From: an uncultured bacterium
Lineage (GTDB): Bacteria; CAYUVA01
Length of the DNA: 63,432 nucleotides
NCBI GenBank assembly: GCA_964448115.1
Contig: CAYUVA010000021.1
Location: 1-63,432, forward strand
Direction: 5' to 3'
Part shown: one piece after another, positions 13,274 to 15,613 of the stretch
How the letters are laid out: each line of letters starts with the position of its first letter
How positions within the stretch are numbered: position 1 is the stretch's first letter
Notes under the pieces: model-generated
The model's input: the letters and a program-made list of their open reading frames with translations, nothing else
Database searches by the model: none
Told to the model about the DNA's origin: nothing
Program-made: the position numbers and the translations under genes

Positions 13274-13879
13274 CTATATATACCCCAGTGCCTTTAGCCT
13301 TTGTTTGATGGTCTCCTCTTCTTCGGGGTTATAGTCCTCATTCTCGAGCTCTACTTTGGGGATATATCCGAGGATCTCAAGGGTTTTTAGGATCTTTGCA
13401 ATGCTCTCGTCAACCGTTTCCTTGTCGGTCTCGCAGACGATCTCGGCGTCCTCTGGTTCCTCGTATGGGTCCGATATGCCGGTGAAATTTTCGATCTCGC
13501 CTTTTATCGCCTTTGCATATAAGCCCTTGGGATCTCGATTTATGAGTACCTCGATAGGGCACTTGCAGTAAACCTCGACATACTTGCCGATCAGCTTCCG
13601 ATTTTCATTTCGGATCGCCCTATATGGCGAGATGGCGGCTCCAATGGCACAGACATCGTTGCGAGTCAGCAGGTTGCACACGAAGCCGATGCGCCTTATG
13701 TTGATGTCCCTATCCTCCTTGGAGAATCCGAGTCCCTTGGAGAGATTTTCCCTGACCACATCGCCATCCAGAACTTCAACCTTCAAACCTCTTTCCAGCA
13801 ATTCTTCAGCAACGCTCCTGGAAAGCGTGGTCTTGCCTGAGCCAGATAGTCCGGTGAACCAGATCGTGAAACCCTTCAT
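13274..13879 (-). CDS. cysC: Adenylyl-sulfate (APS) kinase with a C-terminal LGY extension
   Basis: [13 protein letters not shown]-loop, [43 protein letters not shown]. Confidence 0.93.
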
Positions 13880-13907
13880 TAGTGAACTCCTTTCGTTGTT
13901 CAGTTGG

Positions 13908-15293
13908 TTAGTTCTTAATAATCGATCGCCCTATCATGTCTTCGGGCACATCGATTCCAAAGTAGGTCAGCACGGTGGGTGCGATGTCGTATATTGAAAA
14001 TGTCTCCTTGACTTGAGCAAAGCGCTCCTTCGGCATATCAGTGATGAAGATGCCATCCTCTGCGTGATTGGCATCGTCGGGACCGGTGTCGTTCTCGTAC
14101 ATCCAGATTTTTCCGTTGCCGACGGTTGCAGCCGATCTCCAATCGAGATTTCCGAGATAAACGACCAGGTCAGGGGGTATTCGTTTGCACTCACGATATA
14201 TCTGTTCGGGTATGAGTGCCTTGGTGTTGATCCTGTTTCCATGCTCATCGGTCATTGCTTCCAGGTCAGCTATGATCCTTGCCCTGAATTCCTCATACTC
14301 GGCTTGCGGTATTATGCCCTGCGGCTCTCGTTCCTGCACATTGAAAAAGATACGGCTGTAGTAGCCACCCTCGCCCCATGCGTAAGTTTTCGACCAGTCG
14401 ATCATCTCCATCTTGAGCCTGGTTGGCTCTGCCGGCTCCTCTTTAAGGGTTAGGTATCCTTTCTTGATGAGCCATTCGTTTATGCATATAGCCCCGATCA
14501 TGGTCTTGGCGCCGTGATCCGAGACCACCATGACATTACAGTCATCGCCTAATACTTTAAGCGTTTTGCCGATCTCCTGGTCTAGCAGAACATAATAATC
14601 ATGGATAACCGACTCGTAAGGGTTCCCCGGCTCGTAGAGTCGATGGTTCTTATCCATGTATCGCCAGAAGCCGTGGTGTATGCGATCCGGACCCATCTCC
14701 ACCATCATTGCAAAGTCGAAACTATCGTTTGCCAACAGGTAGCGCAGCGCCATAAATCTCCTTCGGGTCATCACGATGATATCATCGAGCAGCTTCTCCT
14801 TGTTGTCGGTGCGGAAGTTCTTTACATCGATTATATAATCGTCCTCTGCTGCTCGATCCAGCGCATGTTTAATCTCATCAGGATATGTATATTGGACGCT
14901 CTTGTCGGGGGTGAGGAAGCTGGCCACCATAACGCCGTTCAGTGGTTTAGGTGGATAAGTCTGTGGCACGCCCAGAATTAGCGATCTCAGGCGGTTGCGC
15001 GACAGGTAGTTCCAGACCGTCTTCTCCTTGACATACTTGGCATTGGCGAAATAAAGCGCTTCGTAGTCGTAGCTCTTGCGGTTTCTGAAGCCATAGAATC
15101 CGAGTTGACCCGGATCCTTGGATGTCATCATCGCCGTCCAGGCGGGGACGGTGATGGGGGGGATGGTCGATCTCAGCCTGGCATAGACTCCCTTTTGGCA
15201 AAGCGCCTTTAGATTAGGGAGATCATCCAACCAGGCATCGAAGGTTAACTGCGGGGTCATGCAGTCCATGCCGAATATGATAAGTTTTGTCAT
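13908..15293 (-). CDS. Alkaline phosphatase superfamily protein, nucleotide pyrophosphatase/phosphodiesterase type (cytoplasmic)
   Basis: GMD metal ligand, [11 protein letters not shown]hr nucleophile motif, DRIHH, VSDHG, late NH and DIAPT; no signal peptide. Confidence 0.88.
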
Positions 15294-15311
15294 CTTGACT
15301 CCTTTAGTATT

Positions 15312-15536
15312 CTATAGATAACCGAGGTTTTTCAGCTTTTTCTTTATAACCCTTAGCTCCTCTGGGGTAAAGCTCTTTTCTTGTTGTTCATTTTCAGTTT
15401 CATGCTCACTCAGGATATCCCTTAGCACATAGACTATGAATTCCGTAGGTGAACTGAATCCAGAGTCCTCGATAAGTGCTTGTATTTTCTTGTATAATAT
15501 CGTAGGTATCTTGATGGTTACTCTTTTGTCTTTCAT
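15312..15536 (-). CDS. Ribbon-helix-helix (CopG-like) regulator with a C-terminal LGY tail
   Basis: RVTIKIP beta-strand, helix LYKKIQALIE, GFSSPTEFIVYVLR helix; tail PEELRVIKKKLKNLGYL. Confidence 0.82.
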   Translation of the reverse strand: MKDKRVTIKIPTILYKKIQALIEDSGFSSPTEFIVYVLRDILSEHETENEQQEKSFTPEELRVIKKKLKNLGYL

Positions 15537-15560
15537 TTGTTTCTGCCTTTTCTGCCAACG

Positions 15561-15613
15561 ACACTCATATTGTACTCTAATTTGAGTGTATCACCAGGTA
15601 AATATCTTGTCAA
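15561..15613 (-). promoter_or_regulatory. Near-consensus sigma70 promoter with overlapping palindromic operator
   Basis: Minus strand TTGACA (15613-15608)-17 nt-TACACT (15590-15585) with extended TG. Inverted repeat ACACTCAtATT-N7-AATtTGAGTGT at 15561-15589 covers the -10/+1 region. Confidence 0.65.

Follow-up and report, generated by a model that had tools for sequence, protein, structure and literature searches.

Introduction

The type II antitoxins ParD, RelB and CcdA and the Mnt protein of phage P22 are ribbon–helix–helix (RHH) repressors in which the C-terminal segment binds a partner or oligomerises; in PutA, an RHH domain is fused to an enzyme. Here we describe an RHH-like protein that is encoded beside two metabolic enzymes in a 63,432-nucleotide stretch of contig CAYUVA010000021.1 of an uncultured bacterium; we refer to the whole stretch as the window. 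The three genes, RHH1, AlkP460 and CysC, lie head to tail with gaps of 18 and 28 bases, respectively, and most likely form a single operon that encodes an RHH repressor, an alkaline phosphatase (AlkP)-superfamily enzyme of the nucleotide pyrophosphatase/phosphodiesterase (NPP) type, and an adenosine 5′-phosphosulfate (APS) kinase.

RHH1 resembles ParD, RelB, CcdA and Mnt in having a small N-terminal β-α-α module, a linker and a C-terminal helix, and its gene likewise comes first in its operon with a palindromic candidate operator in front. It differs from the type II antitoxins in that its neighbours are metabolic enzymes, its C-terminal tail is common to enzymes of another superfamily, and its membership of the RHH fold is weakly supported. 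No toxin gene adjoins RHH1 in the window or in the RHH1 loci that we surveyed, where the neighbours encode AlkP-superfamily proteins, CysC and the sulfate-activation enzyme Sat. The idea is the same as in PutA, in which an RHH repressor and an enzyme of the pathway under its control are physically joined; the link that we propose here from sequence would be non-covalent, via a portable tail. CysC has the kinase core and P-loop of the described APS kinases (PF01583; 5cb6), and adds to the solved enzymes a conserved 28-residue linker and tail. AlkP460 shares its Pfam match with the NPP branch (PF01663; Xac NPP 2gsn, ENPP1/3) and is set apart from it as a tightly conserved group of 460-residue orthologues encoded beside CysC, with neither a signal sequence nor a tail.

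The tail that ends RHH1 and CysC is typically found at the C-terminus of AlkP-superfamily enzymes, cytoplasmic and secreted alike. In the cluster studied here it is carried by small neighbours (RHH1 and CysC, and elsewhere a second RHH protein and a lipoprotein) and not by the AlkP enzymes. Our best reading, which we put forward tentatively, has the tail docking onto the AlkP fold in trans. We prefer it because the module is typical of AlkP proteins, because the AlkP families of the cluster are without it, and because small neighbours in both cellular compartments carry it.

Results

The tail is a C-terminal module of AlkP-superfamily proteins

The shared tail spans about 19 residues behind a variable linker and forms a self-contained amphipathic helix with one hydrophobic face. 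Its parts are, in order, an (F/Y)(S/T)PEE cap, the segment I..(R/K)L(R/K).L and an L-G-Y-(L/I) cap; we take the (S/T)PEE start and the L-G-Y end to be helix caps, and the designed helical bundle 1g6u has the same FSPEEL start. In the genome that contains the window (the window genome), a relaxed seven-residue form of the motif has 49 matches in open reading frames (ORFs) of at least 150 amino acids, 21 of them within 8 residues of the C-terminus. With 21 of 49 matches at C-termini and AlkP-superfamily proteins accounting for 19 of the 21, the tail is beyond chance; the other two are CysC and an Era-like protein that ends LRHLGYLR. The sequence-only reading had described a terminal (R/K)L(R/K)xLGY helix as common on sulfatases and other AlkP-superfamily proteins, and the genome bears this out: 12 of its 26 AlkP-superfamily ORFs have a strict LGY.{0,3} end and about 19 have the relaxed spelling, secreted sulfatases with signal peptides among them. 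The cytoplasmic AlkP family of C12:47207–48934 carries the tail with an extended signature in 126 of 150 representatives (less than 50% mutual identity), and this signature, YS.EEE...RL..LGY, is common to that family and CysC. Seven of the 26 ORFs are without a C-terminal tail, and five of these seven belong to families of the gene cluster described below: AlkP460, two paralogues of 440 residues, and a pair of 710 and 651 residues.

In tailed proteins, 0–7 residues follow GY(L/I). An 871-residue AlkP-superfamily ORF without a C-terminal tail (C5:11644–14259, + strand) has the motif internally, as ERLASLGYVE, 391 residues before an end (…IGYHILMRTD) that is presumably peptidyl-prolyl-isomerase-like. 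A sulfatase at C26:53490–55295 (+ strand) is split into ORFs of 319 and 268 residues, 39 bases apart, and the tail is on the second. In an AlphaFold2 (AF2) model of a tailed AlkP enzyme, the tail forms a helix (residues 558–570) with predicted local distance difference test (pLDDT) values of 72–79, compared with more than 95 in the core. The fold matches of this model span residues 13–543 only, and no counterpart of the tail was seen in the solved NPP structures.

RHH1 and CysC carry the tail and the enzyme between them does not

CysC matches PF01583 (E = 1.2e-58, residues 2–149) and the NCBIfam models PRK00889 (266.1 bits, cut-off 244, residues 2–173) and TIGR00455 (227 bits, cut-off 138.7). 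It has the P-loop GLSGSGKTT, and by homology it would phosphorylate APS to 3′-phosphoadenosine 5′-phosphosulfate (PAPS). The PRK00889 match stops at residue 173, and residues 174–201 are therefore an appendage, as the sequence-only reading had held. All of the 120 best homologues carry it as YS.EEEE.I..RL..LGYI, with the exact GYI end in 118, and in 60 homologues at 73–81% identity Y183, E188, R194, L195, L198, G199 and Y200 are invariant. The solved APS kinase 5cb6 matches over the core, residues 2–173 (E = 2.4e-73). The 24 solved APS kinases listed all end at or before profile position 180 and have nothing that corresponds to the tail. The AF2 monomer model of CysC places a helix at residues 185–198 with a pLDDT of about 85, behind a linker at about 71. 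The kinase core also ends in a helix resembling the tail.

The tail of RHH1, noted earlier from the sequence, is equally constant. The RHH1 family has 650 matches, and the LGY.{0,3} end is present in 120 of the 120 homologues listed; E60, L68, L71, G72, Y73 and L74 are invariant in 28 aligned homologues. In a species-level genome collection, a pattern search matched 575 stretches, and 524 of these were confirmed to contain relatives of RHH1.

AlkP460, which had been described as tail-less with a GRSIIKN end, has no N-terminal signal sequence and ends directly after its last core element, and the tail is absent from all 120 of its best homologues. These orthologues are 455–491 residues long and 65–72% identical across several candidate phyla. 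AlkP460 matches PF01663 (Phosphodiest) over residues 4–394 (E = 7.9e-44, 151.1 bits, cut-off 23), and D10, T48, N71, D203, H207, D259, H260 and H410 are invariant in 60 orthologues; we take this set to be arranged like the metal and Thr nucleophile sites of NPP enzymes, by mapping the residues and not by superposing AlkP460. A sequence search for solved relatives gave 0 matches at E 0.01. The model of an AlkP paralogue aligns with solved ENPP and NPP structures (Z 28–29, rmsd 3.4–4.0, about 340–397 residues). That the substrate is APS, PAPS or 3′-phosphoadenosine 5′-phosphate (PAP) is suggested solely by the neighbouring CysC. In one Phycisphaerales metagenome-assembled genome (L029:721–2084), AlkP460 reads as overlapping ORFs of 249 and 263 residues beside a tailed CysC, which may reflect a frameshift or an assembly error.

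The tailed kinase goes with AlkP460

The sequence-only reading had called for a synteny survey, and the presence of the tail on CysC does turn out to be tied to gene neighbourhood. Among loci anchored on RHH1, 68 contain CysC, tailed in 14 and untailed in 54, and AlkP460 lies directly upstream of 13 of the 14 tailed genes and of 0 of the 54 untailed ones. The species-level collection holds a single genome of the window's phylum, the window genome itself (1 of 1), and a second survey, not anchored on RHH1, covered 151 genomes from another phylum. In it, CysC was counted as tailed when aligned through residue 201, and AlkP460 was accepted at E 1e-100 or better. Tailed CysC occurs in 29 of these genomes and AlkP460 in 29, with both in 28, AlkP460 alone in one (the gene is at a contig edge) and tailed CysC alone in one (G147); another 71 genomes have an untailed CysC. 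In the 28 genomes with both, the genes are adjacent in 24, at contig breaks in 3 and apart in 1 (G131, where the AlkP match is partial). Adjacent genes are separated by tens of bases, except for 258 and about 300 in two genomes. The counts of both surveys are not phylogenetically independent. The CysC tail thus marks the APS kinase subfamily that adjoins AlkP460, and the only CysC among the window genome's ORFs of at least 150 amino acids is the tailed one.

RHH1 opens a conserved cluster

RHH1 opens a cluster that is conserved in Planctomycetota, Krumholzibacteriia, Latescibacteria, Eisenbacteria and others, and in which genes for sulfate activation (Sat, CysC) stand beside those of several enzymes of the AlkP superfamily. 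It has two layouts. The first consists of RHH1, Sat, a 303-residue sulfatase-like protein, an untailed CysC (about 183 residues) and a membrane AlkP protein of about 720 residues; the second consists of RHH1, Sat (in some loci), AlkP460, the tailed CysC, a 440-residue AlkP protein and a membrane AlkP protein of about 690 residues. The untailed CysC proteins end in a helix similar to the tail (…LEGQGYIP). The strict tail was found on 0 of 93 AlkP ORFs beside RHH1 in 80 loci.

Other small proteins of the cluster carry the tail. In the window genome, two tail-less PF01663 proteins of 710 and 651 residues are followed by a 61-residue RHH-like protein (C14:11519–15835, locus L082); this second RHH protein, at C14:15650–15835, ends KNKLKGLGYLG, and the arrangement is the same in L002 and L054. 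The 710-residue protein and its orthologues begin with a conserved AYIGPGAGFA inside two hydrophobic segments, a topology that might leave the catalytic domain on the cytoplasmic side. About 30 Planctomycetota loci encode, divergently from RHH1, a lipoprotein of about 165 residues that ends …L(S/K)GLGY(V/A)G(G)D (for example L004:5738–6244, − strand), and in several of these loci, L004 among them, a secreted, tail-less AlkP protein of about 840 residues lies 5′ of the tailed lipoprotein. The two may possibly be a periplasmic version of the same arrangement. An apparent fusion of an AlkP protein with the second RHH in L011 (843 residues) was rejected as an artefact of ORF calling in high-GC DNA; the AlkP part ends earlier and in a different frame.

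RHH1 and its candidate operator

RHH1 shows the β-α-α pattern, and its profile matches to RHH families are weak: RHH_8 at E 0.0054 (17.3 bits, under the cut-off of 25.4), the NCBIfam NikR and CdrS models at E 2.5e-4 to 3e-3, far under their cut-offs, and the NikR RHH domain in a profile search of the PDB (E 0.017). Upstream of the gene lies the palindrome ACTC-AAATTA-GAGT, ACTCAAATTAGAGT, at 15574–15587, and a third half-site, TGAGTGT (15561–15567), pairs with ACACTCA (15583–15589) as a 7-nucleotide inverted repeat. The palindrome and the third half-site overlap the −10 hexamer of a promoter-like site that has TG before its second hexamer; sites of this TTGACA-17-TACACT type number 5 in the region, compared with 5.9 expected in shuffled sequence.

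The pattern recurs in front of other RHH1 genes. ACTC-N6-GAGT is present 5′ of RHH1 in 25 of 73 loci, across phyla, and in 7 of 4091 background intervals. The repeated elements read CACTCC/TACTCC(A/G)AT: two or more of the hexamers CACTCC/TACTCC are present in 52 of 73 loci, compared with 0.66% of background intervals, and the mean number of hexamers per 200 nucleotides is 2.44 5′ of RHH1 and 0.13 in the 4091 background intervals. Because these ACTC-N6-GAGT repeats precede the RHH1 gene across phyla, RHH1 is probably an autorepressor, and we infer from the sequences that it would bind the motif. The pattern was not found 5′ of the scattered cluster genes of the window genome (the AlkP pair on C14, the 440-residue paralogues on C3, and Sat on C8). 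Genome-wide, there are eight loose operator matches, and only the one at 15574 adjoins a cluster gene; a simple scan for hexamer clusters returned mostly Thr-Pro-repeat coding DNA.

Predicted docking of the CysC tail

We predicted the complex of AlkP460, with an alignment of 60 sequences, and CysC residues 172–201 in three runs, together with three controls. The median interaction prediction score from aligned errors (ipSAE) was 0.40 (runs 0.19, 0.75 and 0.40), and the best control reached 0.01; against an unrelated 430-residue protein the CysC tail scored 0.00. The contacts of the runs agree to at least 54%, and the partner has a pLDDT of at least 55. The tool's verdict was "weak support", and it reported no interface. 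In calibration, 58 of the 80 solved complexes attained the mark, as did 2 of the 110 mismatched pairs, and scores at or below 0.60 were seen in only 7 of the 80 solved complexes and in both of the mismatches that passed. We take the prediction as a modest rise in the odds and not as evidence of binding.

Discussion

A proposed docking peptide supplied in trans

In this proposal, the tail of most AlkP enzymes would dock in cis, onto the AlkP-fold domain of the same protein, and the tails of this cluster would dock onto such a domain in trans. CysC would be tethered through its tail to AlkP460, so that the pair would handle APS, PAPS or PAP together. The RHH1 tail, which is very similar, may bind the same kind of site; RHH1 would also bind the palindromic operator at its own promoter, and in this way the amount of free enzyme could feed back on transcription. 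The idea of a trans docking peptide had come from the sequence-only reading. Its distributional part holds, as the tail is on two non-AlkP proteins that flank a tail-less AlkP enzyme; for the docking of the CysC tail itself, the support is the weak prediction given above. That the CysC tail docks on AlkP460 is plausible, at somewhat short of even chances in our judgement. The full regulatory model, in which the tails compete and binding is coupled to transcription, is clearly less likely than this single contact. The broadest form of the proposal is doubtful: here the LGY tail would be a general docking peptide for the AlkP fold in cytoplasm and periplasm, which the enzymes of the cluster gave up and with which a kinase, two RHH repressors and a lipoprotein plug in, giving a modular assembly whose transcription is titrated by tail-free enzyme.

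Several observations weigh against docking in trans. The complex score is weak and varies from run to run, and by the calibration most such passes would be false for a pairing that was not already likely. Confident docking in cis, which the proposal expects of tailed enzymes, is not seen in the tailed AlkP model at its tail pLDDT of 72–79. The pLDDT of the CysC tail in the monomer suggests that it might instead pack against the kinase to which it is attached. Secreted sulfatases and periplasmic lipoproteins have the tail as well, which a single partner confined to one compartment does not account for. Hydrophobic segments are present at the N-terminus of 45 of the 49 larger AlkP proteins of the cluster; these proteins may lie outside the cytoplasm, beyond the reach of an RHH protein. 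The co-occurrence has exceptions, with tailed CysC but no AlkP460 in L075 and G147 and the genes apart in G131, and it may reflect inheritance within a few clades, as with any conserved operon pair. Finally, the tail of RHH1 persists in 54 loci from which both AlkP460 and a tailed CysC are missing, so that AlkP460 is not its partner everywhere.

Other readings of the tail

That last observation is accounted for if the tails serve in oligomerisation, binding one another and not an AlkP domain, so that they join RHH dimers at adjacent half-sites and stabilise homo-oligomers of CysC or AlkP proteins; we consider this rather unlikely. The RHH tail would then be comparable to the C-terminal tetramerisation helix of Mnt, and the three or more operator half-sites found in many loci would suit higher-order RHH assemblies. 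The form of the tail also fits, as a capped amphipathic helix with one hydrophobic face whose FSPEEL cap resembles that of a designed bundle, and its placement in the monomer models is moderately confident at most. However, a helix of about 14 residues is short for a stable bundle, and the difference between the tail's scores on AlkP460 and on the unrelated 430-residue protein (0.40 versus 0.00) speaks against this reading. Oligomerisation also leaves unexplained why the AlkP families of the cluster are the tail-less ones and why the CysC tail tracks AlkP460.

We regard it as improbable that a third party, such as a tetratricopeptide repeat (TPR) protein, a chaperone or protease, or a membrane surface, recognises all of the tails and that the tail is a tag for sorting, quality control or membrane targeting. 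Candidates for such a receptor are encoded divergently from RHH1, a TPR-containing gene in the window and the small lipoprotein in many Planctomycetota loci. Membrane-targeting helices are basic and amphipathic, as is the tail. However, tails are found on signal-less proteins (RHH, CysC and the C12 AlkP family) and on proteins with signal peptides or lipoprotein signals, and one receptor in one compartment therefore cannot serve all of them. Recognition of a free C-terminus is in addition made unlikely by the variable number of residues after GY(L/I) and the internal copy in the 871-residue ORF.

We also give little credence to the view that the tail has no shared function and is a stable helical ending, spread by shuffling of 3′ gene ends or by convergence, and neutral or stabilising on CysC and RHH proteins. 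It draws on the tail-like helices that end the CysC core itself and the untailed CysC proteins, and on the Era-like protein with its LRHLGYLR end. These resemblances are set against the constancy of the tail, which has seven invariant positions in the 60 CysC homologues and is present in every listed homologue of RHH1 and of CysC, behind linkers that vary. The signature that CysC has in common with a separate AlkP family argues for selection on a specific surface.

Two further ideas were dropped: C-terminal tags anchored by the carboxylate, such as HbYX-type, PDZ and TPR-clamp ligands, are ruled out by the variable distance from motif to end and by the one internal copy, and sulfation of the tyrosine in the acidic stretch Y-S-P-E-E-E, an idea prompted by PAPS being the product of Sat and CysC, does not fit RHH1, which has F56 (F is the consensus of 28 homologues, with L in four), or the second RHH protein, which has no aromatic residue there.

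Operon layout and genomic setting

The features of the operon are collected in Table 1. RHH1, AlkP460 and CysC are the only cluster genes inside the window; elsewhere in the genome the cluster is scattered, with Sat on C8, the 440-residue AlkP paralogues on C3, and the large AlkP pair with the second RHH on C14. On the 3′ side, the operon is followed by a low-GC ORF without assignment and a dihydrolipoamide-dehydrogenase-like gene; on the 5′ side lie the genes of the TPR protein, SurE and a glycosyltransferase.

Table 1. Coordinates in the window of the operon's genes, protein segments and upstream sites
Feature	Position	Strand	Description
RHH1	15312..15536	−	74 aa; first gene of the operon; ribbon–helix–helix-like; C-terminus KKKLKNLGYL
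AlkP460	13908..15293	−	461 aa; NPP-type AlkP-superfamily enzyme, PF01663; C-terminus GRSIIKN, tail-less
CysC	13274..13879	−	201 aa; APS kinase with 28-residue C-terminal extension
CysC kinase core, residues 1–173	13361..13879	−	PF01583 and NCBIfam profiles, AF2, solved APS kinases
CysC linker PKVELENED, residues P174–D182	13334..13360	−	AF2 block at pLDDT about 71–72 (residues 171–190); sequence variable in homologues
CysC tail, residues Y183–I201	13277..13333	−	seven invariant positions; AF2 helix
RHH1 tail, residues F56–L74, FTPEELRVIKKKLKNLGYL	15315..15371	−	alignment of 28 homologues
Candidate operator	15561..15589	−	palindrome and third half-site; overlaps −10 hexamer
Promoter-like site 5′ of RHH1, TTGACA-17 nt-TACACT	15585..15613	−	consensus match, 10/12

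The unassigned ORF (11280–12812, − strand) encodes 510 residues, has no Pfam match and lies directly 3′ of CysC. It lies in a low-GC stretch, with a GC content of 38.5% at 12–14 kb of the window, compared with about 48–52% elsewhere. Its place is the site of the 440-residue and 690-residue AlkP genes in related genomes, and the ORF may be an insertion that displaced them. The TPR protein (15537–18089, + strand) has a long and very acidic first half, one hydrophobic segment and then the TPR repeats, and ends …KRLKNLAIYALEE, a loose echo of the tail; its listed TTG start is probably too far upstream. A further ORF (3–6230, − strand) of more than 2076 residues runs off the start of the window.

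Implications

Full-text searches, which do not extend to most subscription journals and supplements, returned nothing on the tail, on this RHH protein or on the pairing of AlkP460 with CysC. If the tail is merely an element of oligomerisation or stability, the finding consists of a new sequence motif and a well-defined autoregulated operon. If it is a docking peptide, it would be an undescribed short motif present in hundreds of bacterial species of several phyla. It would give the first functional clue to an orphan AlkP enzyme that is very conserved (65–72% identical across phyla), to the tailed subfamily of APS kinases, to two RHH families without a Pfam model, and to the C-terminal ends of many bacterial sulfatases and phosphodiesterases. 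The operon would then offer a simple, testable case of an enzyme that titrates its own repressor.

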